DNA of 56,412 nt from a virus. Taxonomy: Duplodnaviria > Heunggongvirae > Uroviricota > Caudoviricetes. Under the pieces are notes generated by a model that worked only from the letters and a program-made list of their open reading frames with translations, ran no database searches and was not told the origin of the DNA. The stretch is taken from IMG/VR virus record IMGVR_UViG_2718218136_000004; one strand, given 5' to 3'. Below, one piece after another: positions 18,539-36,226 of the stretch. Numbering within the stretch: the stretch's first letter is position 1; each line of letters opens with the position of its first letter. The position numbers and the translations under genes were made by a program.

Positions 18539-19021
18539 ATGTCAGGACCTCCGAAAACCCCGCCACGCCTGCATTTGATTCGAGGTAACCCCTCAAAGCG
18601 CCCCGTTAAAGACCACAAAAAAACCGCTAAAAAGGATGAAAAAGGTCTTCCTAAAATTCCGCAGCATTTAGGGGCTCAGGGGAAGTACTGGTTCAGGCGA
18701 ATGGCGGAAGAGCTGAATGCGGAAGGGATCATTTCTCAGCTTGATGCGCGTGCGCTCGAGCTGCTGGTGGAAGCCTACACCGAATATCGGCATCACTGCG
18801 AAACACTCGATGTTGAGGGGTATACCTACCGCACGGAAACGCAGAGCGGTGATGTACTGATTAAGGCGCACCCCGCGGCGGCAATGAAAGCGGATGCCTG
18901 GAAGCGGATCCGGGCAATGCTTGCAGAGTTTGGTATGTCACCGGCAAGCCGGGCTAAAGTAAATATCGCCGGACCGGATGATGTTGATCCGCTGGCGGAG
19001 CTTTTAAAAGCGAGAGACTGA
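18539..19021 (+). CDS. Terminase small subunit (P27 family)
   Basis: 160-aa ORF immediately upstream of and overlapping terL; similar architecture to the insert-encoded TerS. Confidence 0.75.
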   Translation: MSGPPKTPPRLHLIRGNPSKRPVKDHKKTAKKDEKGLPKIPQHLGAQGKYWFRRMAEELNAEGIISQLDARALELLVEAYTEYRHHCETLDVEGYTYRTETQSGDVLIKAHPAAAMKADAWKRIRAMLAEFGMSPASRAKVNIAGPDDVDPLAELLKARD

Positions 19022-20048
19022 TGGCAAAAGTGGCTGACGGGATCCGCTACGCCGAACGTGTTGTTGCAGGAGAAATTGTTGCTGGCGAATTTGTCCGCCT
19101 GGCCTGCCAGCGTTTTCTTGATGATCTGAAGTACGGCGAAGAGCGGGGGATTTATTTCAGTGAACCCCGTGCGCAGCACATCCTGAATTTCTACAAATTT
19201 GTGCCTCATGTAAAAGGGGCGCTGGCAGGCCAGCCCATTGAGTTGATGGACTGGCATGTATTTATCCTCATTAATATTTTTGGTTTTGTCATTCCGCTGG
19301 TCAATGAAGAGACCGGGGAAGTTGTCATGCGCAGCGATGGCAGCGGACGTCCGGTGATGGTGCGCCGGTTCCGGACGGCGTACAACGAAGTCGCCCGTAA
19401 AAACGCAAAATCAACTCTGTCATCGGGTATCGGCCTGTATATGACGGGGGCAGATGGTGAAGGCGGAGCTGAGGTGTATTCAGCCGCAACCACGCGTGAC
19501 CAGGCCAGAATCGTGTTTGAAGACGCCAAAAATATGGTCAGAAAAGCCCGGTCGACACTCGGGCGGTTGTTTGATTTCAACAAGCTGGCGATTTACCAGG
19601 AGCAGAGCGCATCAAAATTTGAACCGCTTTCTTCGGATGCAAACAACCTGGATGGTCTGAACATCCACTGCGCCATTATTGATGAGCTGCATGCACATAA
19701 AACCCGTGACGTGTGGGACGTTCTGGAAACGGCAACCGGTGCCCGTCTGCAGTCCCTTTTATTTGGTATCACCACGGCAGGGTTTAACAAGGAAGGGATT
19801 TGTTACGAGCAGCGTGATTACGCCATCAAGGTATTGCGTGGCTATAACAGCGACGTGGAGGGCGCGGTAAAAGACGACTCCTACTTTGCGATTATTTACA
19901 CCCTCGATGAGGGAGATGATCCGTTTGATGAAACGGTCTGGCAGAAAGCGAATCCTGGCCTGGGCATCTGTAAACGCTGGGATGATCTGCGTCGTCTGGC
20001 GAAAAAAGCGAAAGAACAGGTCTCTGCGCGGGTGAATTTTTTTACCAA
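19021..20048 (+). CDS. Terminase large subunit, 5' portion (ATPase domain), interrupted by insertion at 20042-20048
   Basis: N-terminal 342 codons align with the insert-encoded TerL up to ...ARVNFFTK; ORF then continues in frame into insert sequence and the integrase gene. Confidence 0.85.
20042..20048. repeat. attL crossover core (TTACCAA)
   Basis: Identical 7-bp core at 35490-35496; flanking sequence partially conserved (TT[T/C]TTACCAA). Confidence 0.5.
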
Positions 20049-20178
20049 GAAAGTAACATCACGCCGTAACAACAGTGCGACCTGTCCTGATTTTTTTAGT
20101 AACCAAATGAAAGAAAAAGTTTTTTTTCTTGTTCGTCGTTTTTGTTTTTTCTGGAAGGTTCTGGCTGTTTTCATCATT

Positions 20179-20200
20179 TGTGTATTGCACTGTGTATTGC
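20179..20200. repeat. Tandem TGTGTATTGC repeats near attL, candidate integrase arm-type binding sites
   Basis: TGTGTATTGCACTGTGTATTGC just upstream of int; near-identical GTGTATTGCGCTGTGTATTGC near attR. Confidence 0.45.
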
Positions 20201-20220
20201 AAAAACGGGTTATAAATCAC

Positions 20221-21444
20221 ATGGCGCTAAACAAACTGAGCGATAAAAAACTTCGTTCCCTGCTTGGACGCAGGAGTGAGAGGCAGGAAACCATCGCTGA
20301 TGGTAACGGGCTTTCGGTACGGGTCAGTAAATACGGATGTGTTAGTTTTGTTTTCTTTTACAGACTGGCGGGAAGGGGAACCGCGCCCATCTGGCTGACA
20401 CTTGGAAAATATCCTGATCTGAGTCTCAAATCAGCGAGAGAGATGCGCGATCAGTGTCGAACCTGGCTTGCGGAGGGCAGAGATCCACGGATTCAGATAA
20501 AAATTGAACGGGAAGCCACCTTGCAACCTGTTACCGTTCGTGAGGCACTTGAATACTGGCTTGATAATTATGCAATGGATAAGCGTAGGGGAGCAGAACA
20601 TATCAGGCAGTGCTTTGGTAAACATATTTATCCGGTGATTGGTCATGTACCACTTAGTGATTGCTCTATATCTATGTGGATCAAGTGTTTTGACAAAATA
20701 AAAAAAGTAGCACCTGTACAGGCCGGAGCTTTGTTGCGTATATCAAAACAGGCGCTTAAATTTTGTAGGGTAAGAAAATACGCGATTAGTCATGAAATTG
20801 ATGATCTTGAGGTCTGTGATGTGGGAAAAAAGTCTGCGCGAAGAAGCAGGGTTTTAACAGATGATGAAATCAGAGATTTATGGCGAAGTATTAATACTGA
20901 TTATGACAATCACGAATTATCATATGAAAACCGAATTATTTTACGTTTCCTGGTAGTTTTTGGTTGTCGACTGTCAGAAGTATTACTGTCGTCCTGGGTA
21001 GAGTGGGATTTTGATAAGAAATTATGGCGCGTTCCCGCTGATCATAGCAAAAATGGCAGGGAAATAATCAGACCGATTCCTGATGGCATGTTTAACTGGT
21101 TAGTTACGTTAAAAAAAATAACAGGTAACAAAGAAAATGTGATTGGGTTTGATATGCGTCAGTGTACGGCAAGCGTAACTATCGGTAAGACATGGAAAAG
21201 GATGAAACACTCGGAGAAATGGACGGCGCATGATATGCGAAGAGTGTTTGCCACAAAACTAAGTGATCATGGTTTTGAACATAATGTGGTTGAACAGTTG
21301 CTTGGGCACACATTAGGCGGTGTTGCCGGGGTTTATAACAGAAGCCAGTATATGGACAGAAAAAAAGAAGCTATGAACTGGTGGTACGACTATCTGAATA
21401 AGCAAATTAGTGGTGACAGTAATGATTCAAATAGTTACGCGTGA
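20221..21444 (+). CDS. int: P4-like tyrosine integrase of the satellite
   Basis: MALNKLSDKKLRSLLG... N-terminus typical of P4-family integrases; catalytic context FGCRLSEV, HDMRRVFAT, GVYNRSQY. Confidence 0.85.
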   Translation: MALNKLSDKKLRSLLGRRSERQETIADGNGLSVRVSKYGCVSFVFFYRLAGRGTAPIWLTLGKYPDLSLKSAREMRDQCRTWLAEGRDPRIQIKIEREATLQPVTVREALEYWLDNYAMDKRRGAEHIRQCFGKHIYPVIGHVPLSDCSISMWIKCFDKIKKVAPVQAGALLRISKQALKFCRVRKYAISHEIDDLEVCDVGKKSARRSRVLTDDEIRDLWRSINTDYDNHELSYENRIILRFLVVFGCRLSEVLLSSWVEWDFDKKLWRVPADHSKNGREIIRPIPDGMFNWLVTLKKITGNKENVIGFDMRQCTASVTIGKTWKRMKHSEKWTAHDMRRVFATKLSDHGFEHNVVEQLLGHTLGGVAGVYNRSQYMDRKKEAMNWWYDYLNKQISGDSNDSNSYA

Positions 21445-21475
21445 AGAACTTGAAAATGATGAAACAATCGACAGG

Positions 21476-21643
21476 ATGATTAAGGAAGATGAATGTGCAT
21501 GGTTAACCGCTCTTGGCAGGAGACACAGATCGTTACTTGAAAAGGAAGGAAAATTTCCACGAAAAATATGTATTGGCCCACAAACAAAAGTCTGGCGCTT
21601 ATCTGAGGTGCTGGAATGGGTAAAAGGTGAATGGAAACCCTGA
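21476..21643 (+). CDS. AlpA-family transcriptional regulator
   Basis: WLTALGRRHRSLLEKEGKFPRKICIGPQTKVWRLSEVLEWV fits the AlpA HTH pattern; start uncertain (alternative ATGs at 21410 and 21422). Confidence 0.55.
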   Translation: MIKEDECAWLTALGRRHRSLLEKEGKFPRKICIGPQTKVWRLSEVLEWVKGEWKP

Positions 21644-21666
21644 GTTAAATTAAATGAGATATAATC

Positions 21667-21690
21667 AACCCGTCTTTTGGCGGGTTTTTT
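21667..21690 (+). terminator. Intrinsic terminator after first alpA-like gene
   Basis: ACCCGTC-TTTT-GGCGGGT followed by T-run. Confidence 0.5.
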
Positions 21691-21706
21691 TATAGGTGAT
21701 ATTTTT

Positions 21707-21985
21707 ATGCAAAAATTTATTTATCCTACACCCGAAGAACGCATTCAGATTCTGAAAGATCATGGCGAACCGTATGATCGCCGTATACGCGAACATGAGT
21801 GTGCCAATCGTACCGGGCTTTCAAGAAGCAGACGTTGGGTACTTGAACAGGAGGGAGCATTTCCTGCTCGTGCTCATTTAGGGAAAGTGTCTGTTTCCTG
21901 GTTGCTCTCTGATGTGCTCTGGTGGGTTATGCATCCGCCAGGAGTAAAGGAAGTAAACAGCCCATACAAAAACGCCAATAAGTAA
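21707..21985 (+). CDS. Second AlpA-like regulator
   Basis: CANRTGLSRSRRWVLEQEGAFPARAHLGKVSVSWLLSDVLWWV fits the AlpA-like HTH pattern. Confidence 0.5.
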   Translation: MQKFIYPTPEERIQILKDHGEPYDRRIREHECANRTGLSRSRRWVLEQEGAFPARAHLGKVSVSWLLSDVLWWVMHPPGVKEVNSPYKNANK

Positions 21986-21995
21986 TTACCGACAA

Positions 21996-22024
21996 CCCCG
22001 CACCACGCAATGCGGGGTTTTTTG
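21996..22024 (+). terminator. Intrinsic terminator after second alpA-like gene
   Basis: CCCCGCA-CCACGCAA-TGCGGGG followed by TTTTTTT. Confidence 0.55.
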
Positions 22025-22042
22025 TATGTGAGGTAAAAAGCA

Positions 22043-22621
22043 ATGAATAAAAATATTGCCGTGACGGGCAAGGGTGACGCACGTCATGTGAAAAAATTCT
22101 GTGATATTCGTGATCTGGTCGTTCTGCGCTTTGATGGCGTGGATGTTCGTGTGGTGTATCTAAACGGCGATCCGTGGTTTGTTGCAAAGGATGTTTGTGC
22201 TGCGCTGGAACTGACCAATTCGCGTACGGCGTTGCAGATGCTTGATGATGACGAAAAGGGAGTAAATTTAACTTACACCCCCGGAGGAAATCAGAATATG
22301 AGCATTATCTCCGAGTCAGGTTTCTACAAACTAATAGCCCGCAGCCGCAAAGCAACGACGCCTGGCACATTTGCTCATCGTTTCAGTAACTGGGTATTCA
22401 GAAATGTGATACCGGGTATCAGAAAAACGGGGGCTTATGGTATCCCGTGGGGCGCATTACAGGATTTTTCCCGCCGCAAAGAGCAATACCAGATAAGTGC
22501 CAGCGAGAAGGGGAGGGAGCTACAGGCATGTAAGCGCAAAAAGCGTGAGCTGGAGGAAGAAGAAAAAAGGCTGATACGTGAATACCAGCCTGAGTTTTAC
22601 TTTGGTGAGCGTATTCAGTAA
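22043..22621 (+). CDS. Bro-N domain protein (antirepressor-like)
   Basis: N-terminal VRVVYLNGDPWFVAKDVCAALELTNSRTALQML matches the Bro-N/KilA-N antirepressor domain. Confidence 0.65.
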   Translation: MNKNIAVTGKGDARHVKKFCDIRDLVVLRFDGVDVRVVYLNGDPWFVAKDVCAALELTNSRTALQMLDDDEKGVNLTYTPGGNQNMSIISESGFYKLIARSRKATTPGTFAHRFSNWVFRNVIPGIRKTGAYGIPWGALQDFSRRKEQYQISASEKGRELQACKRKKRELEEEEKRLIREYQPEFYFGERIQ

Positions 22622-23064
22622 CCACACGCGGTGTTGATTATACGGTACATCGTGTTGACCGGGAAGCTACCCACCAGCAAGGCAAAATCTTCTGCTAAAA
22701 AATGACATATGACCAGTCGTCCGGAAAGCATGAAATTTTACAAAAATGGAAAATGAAGATTTTTATTGTGCTGGTGGGTAAAAACAAAAAGCGCCCCGTT
22801 ACCGGAGCGCCCTTGCGAACAATTAACCTACTGCGCAAAAAATGAATCTGTGCGGGGGGATTATATCAACCGTGGTCGAAATGACCATAGTTGCAGGATA
22901 ACAGGCAAAACAAAGGCCACCCGCTACGGTGGCCCCTTGACACAAGCTACACGTTATCCCCAACGCATGAGCATAACCAACAATGCCACATTTACGGCTG
23001 GTGGGCAAATCCTGAGCTGTTCTGTAATTACAGAAACTACGGCATTGTCGCGGTTAGGTTATGA

Positions 23065-23217: not shown

Positions 23218-23271
23218 CTTTTACTCCTATGGTTGCCGCCGTGATTCCTCACACCACGGCGCTGGTGATGG

Positions 23272-23451: not shown

Positions 23452-23501
23452 GTTGTGTACCCCTTACAAAAAACAAATGCAGTATGCAGGAAAAAAAATA
23501 A

Positions 23502-23650: not shown

Positions 23651-24190
23651 ATGCTAAATCATACCACACACCCGCAAGGGCGGGACTCGCACAACCTGAA
23701 TAAACCCGATGTAAAAAACCTGTTGATCGCCACTGCCAGCCAGGGCTATGATTTACCCGCACCAGCAAAATCTGGTGCCGGGATTGGCGTCCTGGTATTT
23801 AACGAAGCGCACAACACGCGCCCTGCGTGTTTTTTTGTGCCGGATAGTCACACCTTATCAATGGTGGGCTGTATGGGGGCGGAGCAATCCGCGCCGGGTT
23901 CTTCGTTAACCGGTTACGCCAACCCTGTACAGTCCACCGCCAGCGAAATTGGCGTTTCCTGCGGTGGGTTTATTAAACCTAACGAAGAGGCTGCCAACAT
24001 GGCTACTATCCCTACCCTTGTACATTCCCAAACTGCCTTTATCTGGCGCTTTATCATCTTTGGCGCGTCAGAGTCCCAAATCATCCACGTCACCGCCTGG
24101 ACGGAACGCGAAGCGCGTAACCATTGCCCGTCAGGTTGTGTCGCTGTATTCGCCGCCCGTATTCGTCAGGGGGTGCGCCATGTGCAATAA
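23651..24190 (+). CDS. Hypothetical protein (first gene of satellite rightward operon)
   Basis: GAGG RBS before ATG at 23651; stop overlaps next start; amino-acid composition not strongly protein-like. Confidence 0.3.
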
Positions 24191-24633: not shown

Positions 24634-24639
24634 AAAAAC

Positions 24640-24954
24640 ATGAAAAAGAAAAATTCTGGCTTTACTGCCAGCGGTCACGCTCGGCCTGAAATCCGCCCCG
24701 GTGATATTTTCCGGGATAAATACGGCAGCACGATAACGATTAAAACCGTCGATGATTTTCGTGTGACCTATATCCGCGAAGGTTATGCGCATCCCTGCGT
24801 GTCGTCACATATGCGCTTTGACAGGGAGTTCACCCTGGTAAGCAAAGCACCACCAGCAGAATTAAGCGACATCGACAGAATCATGCGCGTTACAGGAATG
24901 GAACGCATTAAGGCAGTACGTGAAATTATTCGTGAACGGGGAAAGGCAAAATGA
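24640..24954 (+). CDS. Hypothetical protein
   Basis: 104-aa ORF overlapping the start of the replication gene. Confidence 0.45.
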   Translation: MKKKNSGFTASGHARPEIRPGDIFRDKYGSTITIKTVDDFRVTYIREGYAHPCVSSHMRFDREFTLVSKAPPAELSDIDRIMRVTGMERIKAVREIIRERGKAK

Positions 24955-27077
24955 AGCGCGCACCAAACTTAAAGCACCAGCCAGCCGACAAAATGACGGA
25001 GGTTATCATCTTTGCGGGTAGTGATGCGTGGAGCCATGCGAAAGAGTGGCAGGAATGGGCAGGTAAGCATATTGCCGCCGACAATGTGCCGCCTGTCGTT
25101 CTGTCAGATGAACACCTGAAAGATATTACCGGTTATCAAATTATTGATGATAGCCGTCAGTGTGTGCGTATTTACCGCGCAGGGCACATCACTGAACGTA
25201 GCCTCACACAGATCGTCACGTTGCTGGCTGTGGCTGGCGTGAAGACCGTATACGAATACGCGGGGATAACTGACACCAGCCCGGCGGATTTATCCGACCA
25301 GTTGCCTCGCCTCAAAGACGAATACGAGCGCGGGGAAAGTCTGGTGTTGCCCTTAAAGAAAAAAATCACAGAAAGCCCGGGTGATGATGAATTAAAGCCC
25401 CGCGTTGAAAGCCGCGCCGATGGTGTTTTCTGGGTAACGCCAAAAGTGGATAAGCAGTCAGGCGAAATTATCCGGCCTGAAACGTGGTTATGCTCCCCGC
25501 TTGAGCTACTGGGAACGGGGACAATCGGCAAAGAGCATTACCGCGTGATGCGCTGGAAAAAGCCAGCAAACCATGAAGTCATCACGATGGCGGTTCCGTG
25601 CGGTGGCATTGGCGACCGTGACGGCTGGCGGCTGCTGAAAGACCACGGACTGAACGTGACAACCAACGGTAAATACAGGGCTATCCTGGCTGACTGGATG
25701 CAGTTAAGCGGAAACCATGAGGAATGGCAGTTAAGCACAACAACGGGCTGGCATTTTGGCGCGTACATCATGCCGGACGGTTCGGTCATTGGTGATTGCG
25801 AAAAGCCAGTCCTGTTTACCGGAAAAACGGCTGCCGTTAATGGTTATTCCGTGGCAGGAACGGCGGAGGGCTGGCGCGACAGTGTGGCGCGACTGGCTGG
25901 TGGTAATCCGTCCATGATGCTGGGTGTGGCGGTATCGCTATCCGCACCATTAATCGGGCTGGTGGGTGCTGACGGCTTCGGGGTACATCTTTTCGAACAG
26001 TCATCGGCAGGTAAGACCACAACGCAGAACATCGCATCAAGTTTATGGGGAGAGCCGGACGCGCAGCGGCTGACCTGGTACGGCACAGCGTTAGGTATCG
26101 CCAACGAAGCAGAGGCACACAATGACGGGCTTTTACCCCTGGATGAAATAGGCCAGGCCGGAAACGCGCGGGAGGTGTCCACGTCAGCCTATACGCTGTT
26201 TAACGGTTCGGGGAAATTACAGGGGGCGAAGGACGGCGGCAACAGGGAGATCAAACACTGGCGCACGGTGGCAATCAGCACCGGAGAAATGGACGTTGAG
26301 ACATTCCTCAAAACGGAGGGGATAAAAGTCAAAGTGGGGCAGCTTGTCCGCCTGCTTAACGTTCCGATGGAAAAAGCCACGCAATTTCACGAATACAGCA
26401 CCGGAAAGGCGCACGCAGACGCGTTAAAGGATGCCTGGACAGAAAATCACGGGGCGGCGGGTCGTGAGTGGGTTAAATGGCTGGCAGAACACCAGCAGGA
26501 GGCAAAGGACACGGTAAGGACATGCCGTGAGCGGTGGCGCAACCTGATACCGGAGAGCTACGGCGAACAGGTTCACCGTGTGGGGGAGCGATTTGCCATA
26601 CTGGAGGCCGCGCTTGTGCTTTCAGGTCATGTTACTGGCTGGGATGAGCAGGAATGCCGCGATGCCATACAGCATAATTTTAATGCCTGGGTGAAGGAGT
26701 TCGGCACGGGTAACAGGGAATTTAAACAGATGGTTGAACAGGCAGAAGCTTTTTTAGCGTCGTTCGGATTCAGCAGATACCTTCCGTGGCCCAATACCGA
26801 CGAGCGTGATTTACCGATTAAAGAACTTGCCGGATACAGAAAGGGGAGTATCAGAAACGAAGATGACGAGTTCCGTTTTTACACGTTCCCGCATGTATTT
26901 GAGGGTGAGATAGCACAGGGATTTAATCCGTCTCACTTTGCCCGCGCGTTGAGTGCTGCCGGAATGCTGGAAGCGGGTAACGATCGCCGTTACAAGAAAA
27001 AGGCGCTCGGCAAAATTGGGGGGAAGCAGCATGTTTTTTACGTGCTGATGTTCCAGCCAGAAAGCGAAGAAGATTAA
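24951..27077 (+). CDS. Satellite replication initiator, primase/helicase-like P-loop NTPase (DUF927-like)
   Basis: 708-aa ORF with Walker A-like SSAGKTTTQN; immediately upstream of an iteron/AT-rich origin and an SSB gene. Confidence 0.6.
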   Translation: MKRAPNLKHQPADKMTEVIIFAGSDAWSHAKEWQEWAGKHIAADNVPPVVLSDEHLKDITGYQIIDDSRQCVRIYRAGHITERSLTQIVTLLAVAGVKTVYEYAGITDTSPADLSDQLPRLKDEYERGESLVLPLKKKITESPGDDELKPRVESRADGVFWVTPKVDKQSGEIIRPETWLCSPLELLGTGTIGKEHYRVMRWKKPANHEVITMAVPCGGIGDRDGWRLLKDHGLNVTTNGKYRAILADWMQLSGNHEEWQLSTTTGWHFGAYIMPDGSVIGDCEKPVLFTGKTAAVNGYSVAGTAEGWRDSVARLAGGNPSMMLGVAVSLSAPLIGLVGADGFGVHLFEQSSAGKTTTQNIASSLWGEPDAQRLTWYGTALGIANEAEAHNDGLLPLDEIGQAGNAREVSTSAYTLFNGSGKLQGAKDGGNREIKHWRTVAISTGEMDVETFLKTEGIKVKVGQLVRLLNVPMEKATQFHEYSTGKAHADALKDAWTENHGAAGREWVKWLAEHQQEAKDTVRTCRERWRNLIPESYGEQVHRVGERFAILEAALVLSGHVTGWDEQECRDAIQHNFNAWVKEFGTGNREFKQMVEQAEAFLASFGFSRYLPWPNTDERDLPIKELAGYRKGSIRNEDDEFRFYTFPHVFEGEIAQGFNPSHFARALSAAGMLEAGNDRRYKKKALGKIGGKQHVFYVLMFQPESEED

Positions 27078-27099
27078 TTTTTTCTCGCGTGTAGGGTGA

Positions 27100-27255
27100 A
27101 AATTTTGCGGGTTATGCGGGTTATTTCTGTGGATAAATCAGTATCCATATGATTATTAAAGGAATGACAGGAAAATCGTAACCCGCAAAATACCCAAAAT
27201 AACCCGCAAAACGGCAGTTATAACCCGCAAAAGTGCGATTATAACCCGCAGAATT
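27100..27255. repeat. Candidate satellite origin of replication: GCGGGTTAT x2, AT-rich spacer, ATAACCCGCAAAA x4
   Basis: Inverted iteron sets flanking an AT-rich segment immediately 3' of the replication gene. Confidence 0.6.
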
Positions 27256-27313
27256 TCACAGTAAGGGTGTAAACAAGCGTAACTATCAACGTTAAAACCG
27301 GAGAACAGACAGC

Positions 27314-27739
27314 ATGACAGCACAGATAGCGGCTTACGGGCGGCTGGTGGCTGACCCGCAGTTAAAGACCACCAGCAAGGGGACACAAATGGCTATGGCG
27401 AGTATGGCGGTTCCCCTGCCGTGCAGCCAGGCAGATGAAGGAACGGCGACGATGTGGTTATCCGTCCTGGCGTTTGGCAGACAGGCCGATGCACTGGCAA
27501 AACACCAGAAAGGCGAACTGGTGAGTGTGGCGGGTAACATGCAGGTAAGCCAGTGGACAGGCCAGAACGGCGAAATGCGGCAGGGCTGGCAGGTCATCGC
27601 AGACAGCGTAATCAGTGCGCGAACGGCGCGACCGGGCGGCAAAAAAGGCCAGCAGGGCCAGGCTACTGACGCACTGAACAGGGCAAAACAACAGACAGGC
27701 CAGCACGATGATCCGTACGGGGACGGGATACCGTTTTAA
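27314..27739 (+). CDS. Single-stranded DNA-binding protein (SSB-like)
   Basis: 141-aa ORF ending ...DDPYGDGIPF, resembling the acidic SSB C-terminal tail (DDDIPF). Confidence 0.6.
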   Translation: MTAQIAAYGRLVADPQLKTTSKGTQMAMASMAVPLPCSQADEGTATMWLSVLAFGRQADALAKHQKGELVSVAGNMQVSQWTGQNGEMRQGWQVIADSVISARTARPGGKKGQQGQATDALNRAKQQTGQHDDPYGDGIPF

Positions 27740-28605: not shown

Positions 28606-29775
28606 ATGAAGAAATTAATCGAACTCCGCCAGCAAAAAACCGCCCTGAAAAACCAGATGCGATCCCTGCTGGAAAAAGCCGACAGTGAAAACCGCAGCCT
28701 GAACGATGACGAGGGCAAACAGTTTGATGAACTGCGTGCAAAAGCCGATTCCCTCGACACAGAAATTTCCCGCCTCGAGTCTGTGGCTGATGAAGAACGC
28801 AGCAAGCCAGGAACGGGCATCCAGAAATTATCATCTGATGAATTGCGTAACTATATCGTAACCGGAGATGTGCGATCACTGTCCACCAGCACTGACAGCG
28901 GCAGGGATGGCGGATATACCGTAATTCCTGAGCTTGATCGCGAAGTCATGCGCCAGCTACAGGATGACAGTGTTATGCGCGTGATCGCGACCGTGAAGAC
29001 CGCAAAATCAAATGAGTTTCAGAAACTGGTTTCCACTGGCGGCGCAACTGTAGGAAGAGGCACAGAAGGCAGCGCGCGCAGCGAAACCAACACCCCGAAA
29101 ATTGAACGCGTAACCATCAAGCTGAATCCGATCTACGCCTACCCGAAAACCACGCAGGAAATCCTGGATTTTTCAGAGGTGGATATTCTGGGCTGGTTAT
29201 CCTCCGAAATTGCCGACACGTTCGCCAGCACCGAAGAGGATGATTTTGTTAATGGCGACGGTAACGGCAAGCCGAAAGGATTCATGGCTTACACCCGTGC
29301 GGCGACCAGTGACAAAACCCGCGCTTTTGGCACCATTGAAAAAATGGTAGCGGCAAGTGGAACCGCCATTACAGCGGACGAACTGATCGACATTCTCTAC
29401 AAGCTGAAAGCGAAATACCGCAAAAATGCCGTCTGGGTGATGAACTCGGGCACGGCAGGGACACTACAGAAGCTGAAAAATGAGAACGGCGATTATATCT
29501 GGCGCGACAGCCTTAAAGAAGGTGCGCCGGATATGTTGCTTGGTCGTCCTGTTTACTGCCTGGAGTCCATGCCGGACATCGGCGCAGGAAAAGCACCGCT
29601 AGCGGTTGGCGATTTCAGTCGTGGTTATTTCATCGTTGATCATGTAACAGGGATTCGCACCCGACCGGACAACATTACTGAACCCGGATTCTACAAGGTC
29701 CACACGGATAAATATCTGGGCGGTGGTGTGGTGGATTCAAACGCCATCAAAATTCTGGAAATGAAAGCTGGCTAG
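28606..29775 (+). CDS. Satellite major capsid protein (HK97 fold) with N-terminal coiled-coil delta domain
   Basis: 389 aa; C-terminal region co-linear with the prophage capsid protein (38304-39509). Confidence 0.8.
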   Translation: MKKLIELRQQKTALKNQMRSLLEKADSENRSLNDDEGKQFDELRAKADSLDTEISRLESVADEERSKPGTGIQKLSSDELRNYIVTGDVRSLSTSTDSGRDGGYTVIPELDREVMRQLQDDSVMRVIATVKTAKSNEFQKLVSTGGATVGRGTEGSARSETNTPKIERVTIKLNPIYAYPKTTQEILDFSEVDILGWLSSEIADTFASTEEDDFVNGDGNGKPKGFMAYTRAATSDKTRAFGTIEKMVAASGTAITADELIDILYKLKAKYRKNAVWVMNSGTAGTLQKLKNENGDYIWRDSLKEGAPDMLLGRPVYCLESMPDIGAGKAPLAVGDFSRGYFIVDHVTGIRTRPDNITEPGFYKVHTDKYLGGGVVDSNAIKILEMKAG

Positions 29776-29787
29776 TCATGAGTAAGG

Positions 29788-29810
29788 AGGAGGCTGCGGC
29801 CTCCTTTTTC
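29788..29810 (+). terminator. Stem-loop with T-run after satellite capsid gene
   Basis: AGGAGGC-TGCG-GCCTCCT followed by TTTTT. Confidence 0.4.
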
Positions 29811-29829
29811 AGCTTTATGGAGTACACCG

Positions 29830-30390
29830 ATGAAAAACACCGATTTTGAAATCCGCACATCTGAACTGACCGCCAGCGATAAAAAACTGGTGGGTTATGC
29901 CGTTCGCTGGAACAGCCTTTCAGAAATTATCTGGGACGAATTCCGCGAACAGTTCACGCCGGGGGCTTTTGCTGACTATCTGGCGGCGGGTAATGATGTG
30001 CGCTGCCTGTATGAGCATGACTATACCCAACTGCTGGGGCGCACCAAATCCGGCACTCTGGTACTGACTGAGGATAACACCGGGTTACGTTTTGAGCTGA
30101 CACCGCCGGATACCCAGCTTGGAAAAGATGTGCTTACGCTGGTGGAGCGTGGCGACATTACAGGAATGAGCTTTGGTTTTCGCGCATTATGCGAGGAGTG
30201 GAGTATCGCGCAAAAACCGTATTTGCGTACCGTAACTGCCGCAGAACTCCGTGAAATCACGATAACGTCGATGCCTGCTTATCCCGAATCCGGCGTGGAG
30301 ATTGCCCACCGTTCGTTGTTTGCACAGCACCCTGAATTACGCCCGGCAGGAAATAATCGTCATCGCTGGGCTGAACTGGCGGGGTTGTGA
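29830..30390 (+). CDS. Satellite prohead protease (HK97 family)
   Basis: 186-aa ORF similar in N-terminus to the prophage protease; between capsid and portal genes. Confidence 0.75.
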   Translation: MKNTDFEIRTSELTASDKKLVGYAVRWNSLSEIIWDEFREQFTPGAFADYLAAGNDVRCLYEHDYTQLLGRTKSGTLVLTEDNTGLRFELTPPDTQLGKDVLTLVERGDITGMSFGFRALCEEWSIAQKPYLRTVTAAELREITITSMPAYPESGVEIAHRSLFAQHPELRPAGNNRHRWAELAGL

Positions 30391-30391
30391 T

Positions 30392-31615
30392 ATGTGGTGG
30401 CCTTTTAGTCGTAAAAAAAGCGAGCTGCGTAACCTGTCCATTGATGATTTTCTGGCGCTGTCCGGCGTACCGAATACCGGAGCCGGAGAATATGTTTCTG
30501 CCGGGACGGCTGAATCATTGCCTGCTGTGATGAACGCGGTTTCTGTCATCGCTGAGGCGGTGGCCACGATGCCGTGTTATCTGTATCTGGTACGTAATGA
30601 CAAGGGCAGGGAGGCGCGGGAATGGTTGGACAGTCACCCGGTCGATATTCTGCTGAATGAGCAGCCTAATTCGTGCCAGACACCTTACCAGTTTAAACGC
30701 ACAATGATGCGTCACTGCCTGCTGAACGGTAACGCCTATGCGGTTATTGAGTGGGGGCGGGACGGTCAGCCAAAATCACTTCATCCTTATGCGCCGGGGT
30801 GTGTTGTACCGGAACGCACAGGCGCACACAAATACCGCTATACCATCACCGAACCCTATACAGGAACGGTGCGCACGTATTTACAGGAAGAAGTTCTGCA
30901 TCTCCGCTATGCCTCGGATGATGGCTTTCTGGGGCGCTCCCCTGTCACGATTTGCCGTGAGGCACTTGGGCTTGGCCTTGCTCAACAGCGCCACGGAGCC
31001 AGCATTATGAAAGATGGCATGATGGCGGCAGGGATTATCACGTCAGGCGAATGGCTGGACGGCGTGAAAGGTAAACAGGCATTGGATGCTCTGGAACGCT
31101 ACAAGGGGGCGAAAAATGCCGGAAAAACGCCAATCCTTGAAGGGGGCATGGATTACAAGCAACTGGGAATGAGTAACCAGGATGCGGAATGGCTGGCCTC
31201 CCGTCGCTTCTCCATTGAAGACATTGCCCGTATGTTCAACGTATCGCCTATTTTTCTGCAGGAATACAGCAATAGCACCTACAGCAATTTCAGCGAGGCA
31301 AGCCGCGCGTTTCTGACCATGACAATGCGCCCATGGCTGGCGAACTTCGAACAGCAAATCAAGGCTGCTTTGCTGGTGGCTTCTCCCGTACCTGGTACCC
31401 GTTATCTGGTTGAGTTTGATTCAGCCGATTTACTGCGCGCCACACCTACCGAACGTTACGCCACGTATGAGAAAGGAATTAAGAACGGGATCATGAATCC
31501 GAACGAAGCCCGTGAGCGTGAGGGAATGCCGCCGCGTGAAGGTGGCGACGAGTTCAGCCAGGCATGGAAGCAGGAAGTGACAATCAGCAAGAACAGTAAG
31601 GGCGGTGACGAATGA
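30392..31615 (+). CDS. Satellite portal protein (HK97 family)
   Basis: ATG at 30392 after protease stop; segments homologous to the prophage portal (36420-37661). Confidence 0.8.
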   Translation: MWWPFSRKKSELRNLSIDDFLALSGVPNTGAGEYVSAGTAESLPAVMNAVSVIAEAVATMPCYLYLVRNDKGREAREWLDSHPVDILLNEQPNSCQTPYQFKRTMMRHCLLNGNAYAVIEWGRDGQPKSLHPYAPGCVVPERTGAHKYRYTITEPYTGTVRTYLQEEVLHLRYASDDGFLGRSPVTICREALGLGLAQQRHGASIMKDGMMAAGIITSGEWLDGVKGKQALDALERYKGAKNAGKTPILEGGMDYKQLGMSNQDAEWLASRRFSIEDIARMFNVSPIFLQEYSNSTYSNFSEASRAFLTMTMRPWLANFEQQIKAALLVASPVPGTRYLVEFDSADLLRATPTERYATYEKGIKNGIMNPNEAREREGMPPREGGDEFSQAWKQEVTISKNSKGGDE

Positions 31616-31950
31616 TAGCCGGAAATATGCGGGACCGGGTGACGATTATGACATTTACCACACAGCGCCTGCCGTCAGGTGCGATCCAGCAGATATGGAC
31701 GGAAGGGGAAACCATCTGGGCAGAGGTCAAGGGGATCAGCGGACGGGAATTACTGACCGCAGGCGCAGAAACCGCACCTGCAACGATTCGGGTATGGGTT
31801 CGCTATCGTGGCGACATATCCGCCGCCAGTCGCCTGAAAGTGCTTACCGGCGCTTTTGCCGGGAGCACGCTTAATATCATCGGGATCCCCTTACCTGATG
31901 CGAAAAGAACCCGGCTGGAAATTCTGGCAAAGGTGGGTACAGAAAAATGA
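31612..31950 (+). CDS. Satellite head-tail adaptor / head closure protein
   Basis: 112 aa, about 60% identical by eye to the prophage homologue at 40074-40412 (shared TIWAEVKGISGRE, RLEIL). Confidence 0.7.
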   Translation: MIAGNMRDRVTIMTFTTQRLPSGAIQQIWTEGETIWAEVKGISGRELLTAGAETAPATIRVWVRYRGDISAASRLKVLTGAFAGSTLNIIGIPLPDAKRTRLEILAKVGTEK

Positions 31951-32243
31951 CAGCAGAAAAAATAACCCTGGAAGAGGCCAAACTTCACTGCCGCATAGAT
32001 GGTAACACAGAAGACACACTGATTCAGGCATACATAAGCGCGGCGCTGGAGGTATGCCAGAAGCATATTGGCAGGCGTTTTGATGACGGCCTGGAATTTA
32101 CCCCTGCAATAAAAATTGGTTGCCTGATGTACATCTCGCAACTGTACGAGTACCGGACAACGCTTGGCGATACCGATACAAAAGAAATTCCCCTGACGAT
32201 TTCCGCGCTCTGGTCGGTTTATCGTGATGTGGGGGTGTACTGA
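31947..32243 (+). CDS. Satellite head-tail connector (gp6-like)
   Basis: 98-aa ORF; related to the prophage protein at 39760-40065 (shared CRID...N...E pattern). Confidence 0.6.
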   Translation: MTAEKITLEEAKLHCRIDGNTEDTLIQAYISAALEVCQKHIGRRFDDGLEFTPAIKIGCLMYISQLYEYRTTLGDTDTKEIPLTISALWSVYRDVGVY

Positions 32244-32683
32244 TGCCATGGCAACCATTAAGGCGATGCACTGAGCCGGGCTGTAATAAGCGCGTGAAGT
32301 CCGGCAAGTGTGAAGAGCACAGGCGGGCTGCATGGCGTGCAGAGGATGCCAGACGGGGACACCGCCGCGCACGTGGGTATTCCCGACTGTGGGACAAATA
32401 CCGCGCCATGTACCTGAAAAAAAATCCGTTATGCGTGCGTTGTCTGGCTAAGGGTATTTATACGCCAGCTCTTGTGGTGGATCACATCATTCCCATCAAT
32501 GGCGGCGGTGATGTTCTCTTCTGGCCTGAGTGGAACCACCAGGCATTGTGCCAGACGTGCCACAACCGTAAGACGACACGGGAAGATCCAGCCACGAAAG
32601 CGAACCGTAAGGCGGGCATGTATCGCGAGCAGGAAGAACGGGCGGCACATCGTAACGACTGGATGTATGGCGATGATGACTGA
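32243..32683 (+). CDS. Satellite HNH endonuclease
   Basis: Cys-rich N-terminus and VVDHIIPINGGGD...ALCQTCHNRKT HNH motif; upstream of terS. Confidence 0.8.
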   Translation: MPWQPLRRCTEPGCNKRVKSGKCEEHRRAAWRAEDARRGHRRARGYSRLWDKYRAMYLKKNPLCVRCLAKGIYTPALVVDHIIPINGGGDVLFWPEWNHQALCQTCHNRKTTREDPATKANRKAGMYREQEERAAHRNDWMYGDDD

Positions 32684-32971
32684 ACAGGAGCAAAACAGGC
32701 TGATACGTGGACTGATAAGGCAGCGTGACTTATGGAAGACACAGGAGACAGGGCACAAAGCCAACAGGACAGAGCGCACAGAACGCACCACAGCGAAGCG
32801 ATTAACCGACCGTGACCGCGAGGTCATGGAATGTTTTCGCAATCGCTGGTGAGGCCGTCAGAGGGGGTGGGGGAGGTTTTCAGGACGAAACCGCCCCTGC
32901 CGGACACCGACCGCCTCCTCAAATTTTTGTGCACGGGAATTTTTTTGAAAATAATTGGGCGAAAAAAGAAC

Positions 32972-33328
32972 ATGGCAAGACCACCAAAAGCCCCCGCTTA
33001 CCTGGATGAAATCGCGGTCAGGCAGTGGAAGGAAAAATCGCGCCAGCTTTCCGGGCGGGAAGACCTTACCCCCGCCGACTGGAGCAATCTGGAACTGTAT
33101 TGTGTTAACTACTCCATATACCGCAAAGCCGTCGAAGACCTTGCGACGCGCGGGTTCAGCATTGTTAACAGTCAGGGCAGCGAGAGCAGAAACCCCGCCC
33201 TGAGCGCAAAGGCTGACGCGGAAAGAATAATGATCAAAATGGCTTCTTTGCTGGGTTTTGACCCGGTAAGCCGCCGCAGAAATCCACCGGAAACAGAGGA
33301 AGAGGACGAGCTTGACCGCCTGGCATGA
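32972..33328 (+). CDS. Satellite terminase small subunit (P27 family)
   Basis: Start at MARPPKAPAYLDE... (ATG 32972); upstream of and overlapping terL. Confidence 0.65.
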   Translation: MARPPKAPAYLDEIAVRQWKEKSRQLSGREDLTPADWSNLELYCVNYSIYRKAVEDLATRGFSIVNSQGSESRNPALSAKADAERIMIKMASLLGFDPVSRRRNPPETEEEDELDRLA

Positions 33329-34973
33329 GTACGCAGAAGGCGTAAAAAACGGCAAAATTACGGCCTGTAAACGACTGAAACAGGCCGTTAAACGGTATTT
33401 TTATGACCTTGAAAACCCCCTTTACACGTTCGAACCGGAGGTCGTGGAGCGGTTTATTGCCTTTTCCAGGGTGTGTCCGCACGTAAAAGGCGCAATGCGT
33501 GGTAGCCCCATTGAGCTGGAGCCGTGGCAGCAGTTCGCCTTTGCGTGCATCCTGGGCTTTAAGGTTAAGGCCACCGGACGGCGCAAATACACCAGCGCAT
33601 TCATTGAAGTACCGCGAAAAAATGCCAAATCCACGGTCGCCGCTATCCTGGCTAACTGGTTTCTGGTTATGGAAAACGGGCAGCAGGATATTTACACCGC
33701 CGCCGTGAGTCGTGATCAGGCGCGGATCGTGTTTGATGATGCGCGTCAGATGTGCCTTTTATCCCGACCGTTACGAAAGCGGGTAAATATTCAGGCACAC
33801 AAGGTGATACACCCGAAAACCAACAGCCTGTTAAAGCCACTGGCAGCAAAAGCGGCAACCATTGAAGGTACAAACCCGAGTCTTGCCATTGTAGATGAAT
33901 ATCACCTGCACCCTGACAACGGGGTTTATTCCGCGCTTGAACTGGGAATGGGGGCGCGTCCGGAGGGGTTATTATTTGCCATCACCACATCGGGGAGCAA
34001 CGTTGTTTCAGCCTGTAAACAACACTACGACTATTGCTGCCAGATACTGGATGGTGAAGAGGTGAACGAATCCATGTTCGTACTGATTTACGAGCTGGAT
34101 GATGAAAGCGAGGTTGACGATCCGGCGATGTGGATAAAGGCGAATCCCAATATCGATGTTTCCGTCGATCGTGAAAAACTGGCCTCAACCATCCAGAAAG
34201 CGCGGGGTATTCCGTCGCAGTGGGTGGAAATGCTCACCAAGCGATTCAATATCTGGTGTCAGGGGGCTACGCCGTGGATGGGTAACGGTGCATGGGCGGA
34301 GTGCGCCGGAACGTTCGCGGAGGCGGATTTATACGGGCAGGAGTGCTACGTGGGGCTGGACTTATCATCAACCAGCGATATTTCTAGCGTGTGCTATGCC
34401 TTTCCGGTCGGTAAAAAGATTATGCTGGTTTCCCGTCACTATCTGCCGGAATTTCAGTTACAGAACCCCGCCAATAAAAACCGCGCCATTTATCGCCAGT
34501 GGGTAAAGGCGGGCTGGATACGCACAACACCGGGTGACTGCATTGATTATGACCGTATCCGTGATGACATCATGGTGGATGCAGAGAATTTCAGTATCAG
34601 GCTGGTGGGCTTCGATACATGGAACGCCACTCACCTGAGAACACAGCTACAGGGGGCGGGATTTGAGGTGGAGCCGTTCCCGCAAACGTACCTTCGTTTC
34701 AGTCCGGCGGCGAAATCGTTCGAAGTTTTTGTTAACCGGAAGGTGATTGTGCATCGTGGTGATCCGGTGCTGGCCTGGTCAATGAGTAATGTTGTGATGC
34801 AGAGTGACGCGAACGCCAATATCAAGCCGAACAAGAAAAAATCATCCAACAAGATAGACCCGAGCGTTGCGGCGCTGATGGCGTTTGGCACATTCCAGGC
34901 AGAGCATGAGGAATTTGCATTCGATATGAGCGACAGCCACAAAGAGCGGCTTGCGACGTTTGATGGTGTGTAA
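33312..34973 (+). CDS. Satellite terminase large subunit, intact
   Basis: 553-aa ORF co-linear with both fragments of the split prophage terL (ATPase and nuclease domains). Confidence 0.85.
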   Translation: MTAWHEYAEGVKNGKITACKRLKQAVKRYFYDLENPLYTFEPEVVERFIAFSRVCPHVKGAMRGSPIELEPWQQFAFACILGFKVKATGRRKYTSAFIEVPRKNAKSTVAAILANWFLVMENGQQDIYTAAVSRDQARIVFDDARQMCLLSRPLRKRVNIQAHKVIHPKTNSLLKPLAAKAATIEGTNPSLAIVDEYHLHPDNGVYSALELGMGARPEGLLFAITTSGSNVVSACKQHYDYCCQILDGEEVNESMFVLIYELDDESEVDDPAMWIKANPNIDVSVDREKLASTIQKARGIPSQWVEMLTKRFNIWCQGATPWMGNGAWAECAGTFAEADLYGQECYVGLDLSSTSDISSVCYAFPVGKKIMLVSRHYLPEFQLQNPANKNRAIYRQWVKAGWIRTTPGDCIDYDRIRDDIMVDAENFSIRLVGFDTWNATHLRTQLQGAGFEVEPFPQTYLRFSPAAKSFEVFVNRKVIVHRGDPVLAWSMSNVVMQSDANANIKPNKKKSSNKIDPSVAALMAFGTFQAEHEEFAFDMSDSHKERLATFDGV

Positions 34974-35210: not shown

Positions 35211-35393
35211 GTTTTGTATATATATACGAAAAATTGCATTCAGGGGGGGATCGAAATTTCTACTGCCTCTTATCTCTTTGAGTGCTCACCTCGTCAGATT
35301 GTTACACACAAGAAATAAAAAATGCTTCGCGATGGTAGGTCGAATCACTGTATCAAAAAACGGTGTGTATCAGCATTAAAACAATACAGATAC

Positions 35394-35414
35394 GTGTATT
35401 GCGCTGTGTATTGC
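35394..35414. repeat. GTGTATTGC repeats near attR, candidate integrase arm-type sites
   Basis: GTGTATTGCGCTGTGTATTGC; further GTGTAT / CAATAC copies at 35361-35390. Confidence 0.45.
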
Positions 35415-35489
35415 TCGATGATTTATAAAGACTGTTTTTTCATGTTAACTGATTGATATACAGGTGATTTTAAAAAACTTGAAATATTC

Positions 35490-35496
35490 TTACCAA
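35490..35496. repeat. attR crossover core (TTACCAA)
   Basis: Direct repeat of 20042-20048. Confidence 0.5.
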
Positions 35497-36226
35497 ACAC
35501 ATGAATGTGTGGGTAACAGCAGAGTCTGCCTGGATGGACATGATTAAGTGGGAGAAGTGCGAATACATTGCCCCGCGACATGAGCTGAAAACGTATCCCA
35601 TGTGGGTCGGCGTTGACCTTGCTCATAAGATTGATATCTGTGCGGCGGCAAAACTCTGGCGAACGGATAACGGGCATGTTCATGCCGATTTTAAATTCTG
35701 GCTCCCGGAAGGACGGCTGGAACGATGCTCGCGGCAGCAGGCAGAACTTTACCGGAAGTGGGCGGAGATGGATAAGCTGATTCTGACGGATGGTGATGTT
35801 ATCGATCATGCTCAGATAAAAAGTGACTTACTGGAATGGATTGGTGGTGAAAACCTCAGGGAACTGGGATTTGACCCGTGGAGCGCGATGCAGTTCAGCC
35901 TGGCACTGGCTGAAGAAGGGATACCGCTGGTGGAGGTTCCGCAGACGGTTCGCAATCTGTCAGAGGCCATGAAGGAAACGGAATCACTGGTCTATGCCGG
36001 ACGTTTCCATCACAGCAATCATCCGGTCATGAACTGGATGATGTCTAACGTTACGGTAAAACCGGACAAAAACGACAATATCTTCCCGAATAAATCCACG
36101 CTGGAAGCCAAAATCGACGGCCCTGTTGCGATGTTTACAGCAATGAGCCGGATGCTGGTCAATGGTGGTGAACCGGAGCCGGATCTGTCTGAACATCTGG
36201 TCAGCGTGGGCATCCGCTCGCTTTAA
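35490..36226 (+). CDS. Terminase large subunit, 3' portion (nuclease domain), continuation of the gene interrupted at 20048
   Basis: Translation ...[14 protein letters not shown]... is co-linear with the insert TerL segment ...TKRFNIWCQGATPW...; downstream motifs also conserved. Confidence 0.85.

Follow-up and report, generated by a model that had tools for sequence, protein, structure and literature searches.

The window, i.e. the whole stretch of 56,412 nucleotides that was analysed, contains part of a lambdoid helper prophage, the large terminase gene (terL) of which is interrupted by a satellite element of approximately 15.4 kb (20049-35489). The gene of the helper terminase small subunit (18539..19021, + strand), of the P27 family, was identified through Pfam (Terminase_4, E=2.3e-25) and from the PGAP annotation of the near-identical APEC17 locus. 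It is followed by the 5′ fragment of terL (terL′, 19021..20048, +), which encodes the whole ATPase domain (TerL_ATPase, residues 112-268) and approximately the first 70 positions of the nuclease profile (TerL_nuclease, residues 283-353, profile positions 2-72 of 286, both from Pfam). Homology to the intact terL of approximately 900 other E. coli genomes stops at query position 349, corresponding to window position 20048, and PGAP labels terL′ of the APEC17 locus as a pseudogene 'missing C-terminus'. The rest of the nuclease domain (Pfam TerL_nuclease, profile positions 64-283) is encoded by the 3′ fragment (′terL, 35490..36226, +). The helper genes that flank the split terL, namely HNH and terS upstream and portal, protease and capsid downstream, all lie on the + strand.

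A three-way alignment of attL, attR and the intact terL of genome L008 defined a crossover core of 7 bp, TTACCAA, which is present on the + strand at 20042..20048 (attL, where it matches the published att identity of A_Terminase_1_246) and at 35490..35496 (attR). Joining the sequence on the left of attL to that on the right of attR yields the intact terL of L008, and excision would restore the gene. The motif tgTGTATTGCactgTGTATTGCa, found as direct repeat family D16 at 20179..20201 (+), is a doubled sequence that qualifies as a candidate arm-type binding site of the integrase and is a hallmark of the attP of helper-embedded PICIs (HE-PICIs). The doubled TGTATTGC occurs again in the P arm at 35393..35415 (+), where it was found from the same repeat family and by reading out the sequence, so that tgTGTATTGCantgTGTATTGCa is present on both attP arms. 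The copy at 20179-20201 is 134 bp from the core centre, as compared with a published spacing of 132 ± 2 (PMC10111431), and the doubled motif is kept in all the motif-bearing sister loci.

The satellite is co-oriented with the helper late operon, all genes being on the + strand, and its order (int, two alpA genes, Bro-N, isrK and C4, DUF927, SSB, and capsid to terL) corresponds to successive integration, Bro, replication and late zones. Downstream of int are two AlpA-family genes (21422-21643 and 21707-21985; Pfam Phage_AlpA, E=1.7e-9 and 5.6e-10, respectively), a Bro-N domain gene (22043..22621, from the PGAP annotation of its APEC17 equivalent) and the isrK and C4 RNAs, a P4-type immunity RNA pair (23759..23944; 80 and 75 bits in Rfam, both above the gathering score). 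The replication zone (24951..27739) comprises a DUF927 primase/helicase (24951-27077; Pfam, E=5.8e-46), iteron-like repeats (27097-27253; repeats D1/D3/D9) and an SSB (27314-27739; PGAP). The late zone (28606..34973) carries the element's own capsid and packaging genes, i.e. major capsid, prohead protease, portal, head closure, head-tail connector, HNH, terS and terL (PGAP of APEC17; Pfam Phage_capsid, HNH, Terminase_4, TerL_ATPase and TerL_nuclease), and tail genes are absent from it. The satellite TerL shares only 32% identity with that of the helper.

On the strength of its att sites and gene order, the element is a member of a kind already known, namely the HE-PICIs described by Tommasini, Mageeney & Williams in NAR Genom Bioinform 2023 (PMC10111431), and belongs to the site group A:Terminase_1:246. 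It shares with this group the attB within terL, the 'ttaccaa' identity block, a near-identical attL and a matching attR, a helper prophage at the potB/potC locus, the doubled TGTATTGC motifs at the published spacing, the order of the zones and the co-orientation with the late genes. Nothing substantive sets the element apart from the group, the window merely having the minority G+T8 allele discussed below. The near-identity of its attL with that of published members would also place the integrase in the HE-PICI clade of P4-like tyrosine recombinases.

In gene content, the element also resembles the capsid-forming PICIs, with which it has in common a size of approximately 15 kb, int, alpA and a primase, HK97-type capsid, protease, portal, head-tail connectors, HNH, TerS and TerL, and the lack of tail genes. 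Like them, it may build small capsids of its own and take only tails from the helper. The model members of this family, which is associated with Alqurainy et al. 2023, reportedly reside in the chromosome, at a distance from the helper; unlike these models, the present element is embedded in the helper terL and disrupts it. Elements that intervene in a gene and regulate its integrity are well known from the skin element in sigK of B. subtilis and from the phage-like elements in comK of Listeria. As in those cases, a mobile element splits a gene, which precise excision restores at a defined stage, with the difference that the split gene is here the helper phage's own and that the benefit is presumably the satellite's. 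The capsid-forming family has also been used in SatelliteFinder (PMC10085698), and regulated gene integrity has been cited as a concept (PMC10111431).

The satellite integrase (Int) is a tyrosine recombinase of 407 residues (20221..21444, +). Its true start was set at ATG 20221 from the Pfam domains, the lengths of homologues and the PGAP calls: the Arm-DNA-bind_3 domain starts 6 residues past this ATG and is followed by Phage_integrase, most of the 120 homologues listed measure approximately 395-413 residues, those aligned beginning with MA.NKLSDK, and PGAP picks ATG 20221 as the start of int in the alleles in which terL and int are out of frame. The closest homologues adjoin phage late-gene fragments. 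Querying genome contigs with one Int sequence yielded just two Xenorhabdus loci, an alignment-based scan of viral contigs being far more productive. Integrase starts in RefSeq come in at least three variants (470, 445 and 407 residues), with some entries titled 'terminase fragment'; such discordant calls arise because the frame between terL and int is open. The 470-residue variant is that of the near-identical APEC17, for which the NCBI pipeline takes as the start an in-frame GTG, at 20032 in the window. Annotation fusions of int with a late-gene fragment have already been noted (PMC10111431).

The initial annotation had described one frame, free of stop codons, that runs from the helper terL into the satellite int, and such a frame is indeed present: the ORF listing of the window contains a single ORF of 807 residues with an ATG start (19021..21444, +), in which an intact TerL ATPase domain precedes the arm-binding and catalytic domains of the integrase, likewise intact (Pfam). 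The terL frame (…VNFFTK) encounters no stop across 20050-20220 and then meets the int ATG in register (MALNKLSDKK…). The linker measures 171 nt, or 57 codons rather than the 56 initially counted. It is free of stops in the terL/int frame only, three and four stops interrupting the two remaining forward frames. For its length and composition, an independent-base model gives a 2.2% probability of a stop-free frame, and 20,000 dinucleotide-preserving shuffles give 7.3%. Thus, the original estimate of a few percent was right and the open linker is unremarkable. The caveat then attached to it, that the openness could be due to chance, is the better reading.

From its frame stops and its alignment with sister elements, the linker (20050..20220, +) represents the P′ arm in the attP of the satellite and is non-coding DNA. 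It aligns at the DNA level with the Arsenophonus and Xenorhabdus sister elements, in which the doubled motif, a TTCTGG block and an A/T palindrome are conserved, with single-base indels and in-frame stops elsewhere. Judging from these alignments, the linker evolves as DNA, in the manner of an att arm, and neither the frame counts nor the alignment with the sister elements revealed protein-level conservation of the 57-residue joint (VFFLVRRFCFFWKVLAVFIICVLHCVL), which corresponds to translated attP-arm DNA. The P′ arm is T-rich and A-poor on the + strand and carries the doubled TGTATTGC, features that lead to few stop codons.

Whether terL′ and int share a frame depends on a polymorphic run of T (20120..20127, +), which allele comparison resolved into a common form, GA+T6, and two longer ones, GA+T7 and G+T8, the latter being that of the window; only the two longer forms fuse the frames. 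Among the 35 complete E. coli RefSeq genomes with the junction, terL and int are in frame in six (T8 in APEC17 and 181.1; AT7 in ETEC1749, rl0044, 042 and NRZ96606), the other 29 being 1 nt shorter. The 32 published Escherichia attL sequences include eight fused ones and 22 with T6, two of which have premature stops, and the eight IMG/VR copies consist of one fused, six with the stop at −5 and one with a premature stop. In the common allele the terL frame ends at a TAA 5 nt upstream of the int ATG (positions −8 to −6 in all the T6 junctions that were read through, five from RefSeq and six from IMG/VR). Overall, an earlier stop is found in only 3 of approximately 80 E. coli-lineage sequences, 17-25% are fused and most others have the TAA at 5 nt. 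In L017, Ese18 and Eco13099, the linker carries nonsense or frameshift mutations. The alleles span different core and terL backgrounds, G+T8 being found with both TTACCAA and TCACAAA cores. With identities of at least 97% among the E. coli copies, their agreement carries little weight either way. Frame continuity between terL and int is thus not conserved among copies of the same element.

More distant comparisons were made across 11 integrase/site lineages, with the late-gene frame scored by an analysis anchored on the att centre, as the criterion of the longest ORF near int picked complete upstream genes in some lineages. In nine of them (Arsenophonus A:246, A:132, capE:80, two with portal:241, portal:227, L031, L027 and the Xenorhabdus portal site), a stop closes the late-gene frame 69-162 nt ahead of int. 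Besides the E. coli terL-site lineage, it is open only in a C:CLP_protease:110-like lineage, in which it extends 53 nt into int in 10 of 12 loci. No excess over chance of late-gene ORFs reaching the int start was found among the 11 lineages (two seen, 0.61 expected from shuffles, P(≥2)=0.12). Both the T-run and the TerL′-Int fusion are absent from all the sisters. An in-frame fusion as a designed link, which the initial annotation had envisaged, is not supported, given its presence in only 6 of 35 RefSeq junctions and 8 of 32 attL sequences and the early stops of the nine sister lineages.

Inspection of the initiation signals confirmed that the int ATG lacks a convincing Shine-Dalgarno (SD) sequence, the best anti-SD duplex in the −20 to −1 region being a weak −3.2 kcal/mol. 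Values of −3.3, −3.3 and −2.7 kcal/mol were obtained for A:132, the Xenorhabdus portal site and L027, respectively, all with late-gene stops far upstream of int. By this sequence measure, the weak SD is not specific to the E. coli terL-site lineage and also occurs where a coupling geometry is absent. No consensus sigma-70 promoter or terminator was found on the + strand in 19800-20500 and 34900-35560, a result that neither demonstrates an independent int promoter nor rules one out. A TTGCAC…TATAAA pair considered by hand as the int promoter was rejected for its unconvincing 20-nt spacer, and a leaderless int start because the −10 spacing does not fit. No significant RNA structure was detected around the int start (z=+0.56), a value on which a start-occluding structure opened by upstream translation was rejected. 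A small upstream ORF (MKEK…, 36 codons in the T6 allele) was also discarded as a conserved leader peptide because the NTGAAA block of the Arsenophonus and Xenorhabdus elements meets stops within 2-6 codons.

With a probability of roughly 0.65, the 807-residue ORF is considered a by-product of site-specific integration and of a length variant of the T-run, the fusion being incidental. The HE-PICI has recombined through TTACCAA into codon ~343 of the lambdoid prophage terL, in the orientation of the late operon, and a T-run longer by one base (G+T8 instead of GA+T6) brings the terL frame into register with int. Int would normally be translated from its own ATG 20221, in the integrated element from transcripts that may include helper late read-through and in the circular element from satellite-derived transcripts, and a fusion product, or the arrival of terL′ ribosomes, would be tolerated rather than selected. 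Int is needed from the excised circle for integration, where there is no terL′ upstream, which argues against in-frame continuity as a design. What speaks against an incidental origin is that in E. coli the terL frame nearly always reaches the int start, which has neither an SD nor a consensus promoter, an arrangement that would look like translational coupling. The C:CLP_protease:110-like lineage, with its open late-gene frame, also counts on this side.

Termination-reinitiation couples the translation of adjacent bacterial genes. In the GA+T6 allele, ribosomes leaving terL′ at the stop 5 nt before the SD-less int ATG could reinitiate there, timing excision to helper late expression, with the fused allele as a slippage derivative. 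The position of the stop in all the T6 junctions read to the ATG, the poor SD, the lack of a consensus promoter or terminator in 19800-20500 and the co-orientation with the late operon fit this scheme, as does the finding that the related 11capE satellite, the only one whose excision after helper induction was demonstrated experimentally in the study concerned, showed excision at a late stage only, following composite replication (PMC10111431). However, the upstream 'gene' is a truncated pseudogene to which att-arm DNA adds 56 codons, its geometry is not conserved in the sister lineages and is missing from the window's own G+T8 allele, as from a fifth to a quarter of the copies, and SDs just as weak are found where the late-gene stop lies over 100 nt before int. 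Moreover, the two lineages open to int, one of which overruns the ATG, are compatible with chance, A/T-rich leaders can be expected to have a stop within 10 nt of a start by chance, most lineages having one in some frame, and the requirement for Int from the circular form applies here as well. Reinitiation is therefore regarded as doubtful. A wider scheme for the Escherichia terL-site HE-PICIs, in which terL′ ribosomes drive Int translation by reinitiation with T6 and the T-run toggles to the TerL′-Int fusion with T7/T8, so that translation wires excision in cis to helper late expression in a lineage-variable manner, is rated as rather improbable.

The T-run might instead be a phase-variable tract, with slippage between T6 and T7/T8 switching Int between free and fused forms (or on and off), or the ribosome itself might slip by −1 on T6 to give a minor fusion product. 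Three alleles that alter the frame do occur in near-identical elements of varied core and terL background, and the T6 terL frame (GAU UUU UUC) holds a U_UUU_UUC heptamer, from which a −1 shift enters the int frame. Yet six to eight T are few for efficient slippage, only +1 alleles are seen (no T5 or T9), the lack of significant RNA structure extends to a downstream stimulatory one, the tract is absent from the sister lineages, and neutral drift of a homopolymer in a dormant element accounts for these data as well; switching at this tract is thus held to be quite improbable. The intact domains of the ORF and the recurrence of the allele in 17-25% of the copies could also suggest that the TerL′(ATPase domain)-Int fusion is itself selected, e.g. 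to send Int to packaging complexes or to poison the helper terminase, which is very hard to reconcile with a minority, derived allele that has no counterpart in any sister lineage and a joint of translated attP-arm DNA. Finally, homopolymer length errors are frequent in long-read assemblies, and the extra T could be one of them, with no fusion in the cell. The +1 length recurs, however, as two variants (T8 and AT7) in six RefSeq genomes that are independent of one another and differ in laboratory and host, and it is also present in eight published draft genomes, so that an error was rejected as the cause and is given almost no credence.

By taking into account these results, the proposal of coupling or fusion between terL and int is correct as far as the anatomy of the junction is concerned, a helper terL fragment and a satellite int being co-oriented, with no consensus terminator between them and a poor SD. 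Coupling survives only in another form, which relies on the common allele, with its stop 5 nt short of the ATG, and not on the window's allele. That helper late transcription continues into int is plausible, and those who described the HE-PICIs had already proposed it (PMC10111431), while in-frame continuity as a designed feature is unsupported. The reading-frame relations, the polymorphism of the T-run and the stop 5 nt before int are not discussed in that work. If the frame continuity were functional, this would be the first satellite to borrow in cis the ribosomes of its helper, and not just its transcription, for the timing of excision. The evidence favours continuity as an accident of integration and of a homopolymer length variant, and the geometry of the common allele, with its stop 5 nt before the start, provides those working on helper-embedded satellites with a hypothesis that is cheap to test.

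The + strand ORF of 807 aa (19021..21444, ATG start) that joins helper terL to the satellite integrase gene, int, is real: it appears as a single ORF in the six-frame listing, and the window sequence translates across the junction as ...ARVNFFTK, KVTSRRNNSATCPDFFSNQMKEKVFFLVRRFCFFWKVLAVFIICVLHCVLQKRVINH, MALNKLSDKKL.... The linker (20050-20220) consists of 171 nt, that is, 57 codons free of stops in the terL frame up to the int ATG at 20221, while its two other forward frames contain 3 and 4 stops. The initial annotation had put the probability of such a linker by chance at a few percent, an estimate in agreement with the computed values of 2.2% (independent-base model, same composition) and 7.3% (dinucleotide-preserving shuffles). 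Its remark that the integrase ATG lacks a convincing Shine-Dalgarno sequence also holds, the best anti-Shine-Dalgarno pairing upstream of ATG 20221 being weak (−3.2 kcal/mol).

The window carries a lambdoid prophage with the + strand order Q, tRNA cluster, lysis genes, HNH, terS, terL, portal, protease, capsid and tail genes. Its terL is split into a fragment encoding residues 1-343 (terL′, 19021-20048, +), with the full TerL_ATPase domain and the first approximately 70 profile positions of TerL_nuclease, and the remaining nuclease domain, located by TerL_nuclease domain search (35490-36226, +). Alignment with the uninterrupted terL of E. coli AR_0089 (locus L008) revealed a 7-bp core, TTACCAA, common to both junctions (20042-20048 and 35490-35496), and joining the outer flanks yields an intact terL. 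Other helper features are DicF small RNA (4403-4454, −), sok with hok (11003-11178, +) and the Met(CAT)/Thr/Gly tRNA cluster downstream of Q (14690-14999, +), the tRNA-Met(CAT) of which is annotated as Ile2 in the APEC17 prophage; an IS009 RNA match is found at the right end of the window (56174-56372, +). A GNAT acetyltransferase gene of low GC content (approx. 42%; 17102-17587, −) between the lysis genes and HNH/terS looks like a moron insertion, since the APEC17 prophage, near-identical elsewhere, lacks a gene at this position.

The approximately 15.4 kb between the two cores encode a tyrosine integrase (Arm-DNA-bind_3 and Phage_integrase domains), two AlpA-family proteins, a Bro-N protein, the RNA pair isrK/C4, a DUF927 primase, an SSB and a full HK97-type head and packaging set (capsid, protease, portal, head closure, connector, HNH, terS and terL), with no tail genes. 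The satellite TerL is only 32% identical to that of the helper and differs from it at the att position. The adjacent isrK (80 bits) and C4 antisense RNA (75 bits) matches (Rfam; 23759-23944, +, inside the Bro zone) are a P4-type immunity RNA pair, as reported for some helper-embedded PICIs (HE-PICIs; PMC10111431). Three iteron-like GCGGGTTAT repeats with 21-bp spacing lie downstream of the primase gene (27097-27253) and recur near the satellite right end in direct, then inverted orientation (35042-35105 and 35184-35210); they could represent an origin together with another binding array, for packaging or regulation.

On sequence grounds, the element is assigned to a known class, HE-PICI site group A_Terminase_1_246. 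HE-PICIs were described by Tommasini, Mageeney and Williams in 2023 as satellites whose integrase clade has 14 target sites in prophage late genes, always in the orientation of the late operon (PMC10111431). The group has the att identity ‘ttaccaa’, Escherichia hosts and helpers at potB (PMC10111431 supplementary tables), and the window junctions are identical to its published attL and attR sequences. The HE-PICI hallmark, a doubled tgTGTATTGCantgTGTATTGCa motif on each attP arm (PMC10111431), is found at 20179-20201 and 35393-35415, with the first copy 134 bp from the core centre versus 132 ± 2 in HE-PICIs. The proposed arrangement of helper terL, satellite int and a link in cis to late transcription is read correctly, but was already published: helper late transcription was hypothesised to ‘continue into’ the integrated satellite, transcribing its integrase (PMC10111431). 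No work on int translation was found in the later HE-PICI literature. Relatives of the window integrase at non-phage sites, in a membrane-protein gene of Xenorhabdus bakwenae (L009, 3337-3861) and at DUF333/yeaN in E. coli (off-A_246.Eco2384; PMC10111431 Supp File 3), look like off-target integrations, in agreement with PMC10111431; unlike the E. coli elements, the copy in Xenorhabdus is preceded by a strong Shine-Dalgarno sequence, GGAGG.

The open frame was shown to originate from integration, which places a stop-poor attP arm behind truncated terL, and from a T-run allele with one additional base, which aligns the frames. The junction query matched 934 of 5,426 complete E. coli genomes (approx. 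900 through the uninterrupted terL part only), and 35 contained the exact terL::int junction; no int copies away from it were found at megablast sensitivity. The junction is in frame (801 nt) in 6 of the 35, with G+T8 (as in the window) in APEC17 and 181.1 and GA+T7 in ETEC1749, rl0044, 042 and NRZ96606. The remaining 29 are one base shorter, and the five of them examined carry GA+T6 at the position of 20120-20127. In published Escherichia attL sequences (n = 32) GA+T6 occurs in 22, GA+T7 in 4 and G+T8 in 4; two GA+T6 copies differ further, Ese18 by a CAA>TAA nonsense change and Eco13099 by an extra T in an earlier T-run that brings a TGA in frame. The eight IMG/VR copies comprise one fused, five stopping just before int, one (L017) with a CAA>TAA nonsense change and one with too short an upstream region to score. 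These allele counts in RefSeq, published and IMG/VR copies establish that the homopolymer is polymorphic and that the in-frame state is a derived allele carried by a minority of copies; terL-int frame continuity is not conserved within the element. The annotation of the integrase follows the T-run allele: the NCBI pipeline calls three starts (L001, L003 and L002; protein cluster P0001), namely a GTG inside terL (470 aa) and the equivalents of ATG 20107 (445 aa) and ATG 20221 (407/402 aa). The 445-aa form represents this 90% cluster, and two homologues from Xenorhabdus carry the name ‘prophage terminase, large subunit (fragment)’.

In sister lineages (80 IMG/VR loci, retrieved with an alignment of 15 diverse integrases), the frame open upstream of the att centre was followed toward int with the doubled motif as anchor. 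The late-gene frame stops upstream of int in Arsenophonus at the same terL site (111 nt), A:Terminase_1:132 (162 nt), capE:80 (132 nt), portal:241 (148 nt) and its diverged branch (160 nt), portal:227 (104 nt), the L031 (69 nt) and L027 (158 nt) lineages and the Xenorhabdus portal site (141 nt). Only one other lineage, presumably C:CLP_protease:110, has an open frame; the prohead protease at its target site is ClpP-like (peptide ...MPENxMMMIHYPSHY...). Here, the interrupted frame is open for 73 codons beyond the att centre (from approx. 220 nt upstream of int) and passes the int ATG out of register with int. In 10 of 12 loci (L033, L038, L052, L057, L060, L062, L065, L067, L068 and L069) its end lies 53 nt inside int, the exceptions being L035 (stop 40 nt upstream) and L056 (end 26 nt inside). 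A frame that stays open to the last 10 nt before the ATG is seen in 2 of 11 lineages, versus 0.61 expected from shuffles of each lineage's linker (P(≥2) = 0.12). The linker aligns as DNA with the Arsenophonus and Xenorhabdus sisters in conserved blocks (the doubled motif, TTCTGG and an A/T palindrome), outside which single-base indels and stops occur; no conserved small upstream ORF was found in this alignment. Shine-Dalgarno sequences are weak outside the window's lineage too, with values of −3.3 (A:132), −3.3 (Xenorhabdus portal site) and −2.7 kcal/mol (L027) where late-gene stops are distant. Delivery of integrase through the in-frame ORF is not supported as a conserved feature.

With the window allele, ribosomes initiating on terL in helper late transcripts would read into int to yield a TerL(ATPase)-linker-Int polypeptide, and free Int would require internal initiation at ATG 20221. 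In junctions with the common allele, the T-run takes the terL frame out of register, and a TAA closes it 5 nt short of the int ATG because the final approximately 110 nt are T-rich (45% T, 22% A) with one stop in all three frames together. The same ribosomes would terminate there, a geometry that would permit reinitiation. That reinitiation after the terL′ stop contributes to Int synthesis is judged unlikely. Against coupling as a designed feature stand its lack of conservation across lineages, the frequency of alleles abandoning the 5-nt spacing, equally weak Shine-Dalgarno sequences in uncoupled lineages, and the logical requirement for Int from the excised circle, where terL′ is absent. In that circle the satellite right end lies upstream of the core, with an in-frame TGA at 35480-35482. 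Scans of the linker and right arm revealed neither a promoter nor a terminator of consensus type, and no outstanding RNA structure was seen around the int start. At 20113-20131 (GAAAAAG + T-run + CTT, also in L002 and others), the polymorphic T-run lies inside an A/T palindrome (AAGAAAAAG / CTTTTTCTT-like). In the terL frame of the common allele, GAU UUU UUC contains a U_UUU_UUC slippery heptamer, at which a −1 shift would lead into the int frame; the sequence downstream of it showed no stimulatory structure. What retains interest in this element is the common allele's stop 5 nt before int, together with the polymorphic T-run.
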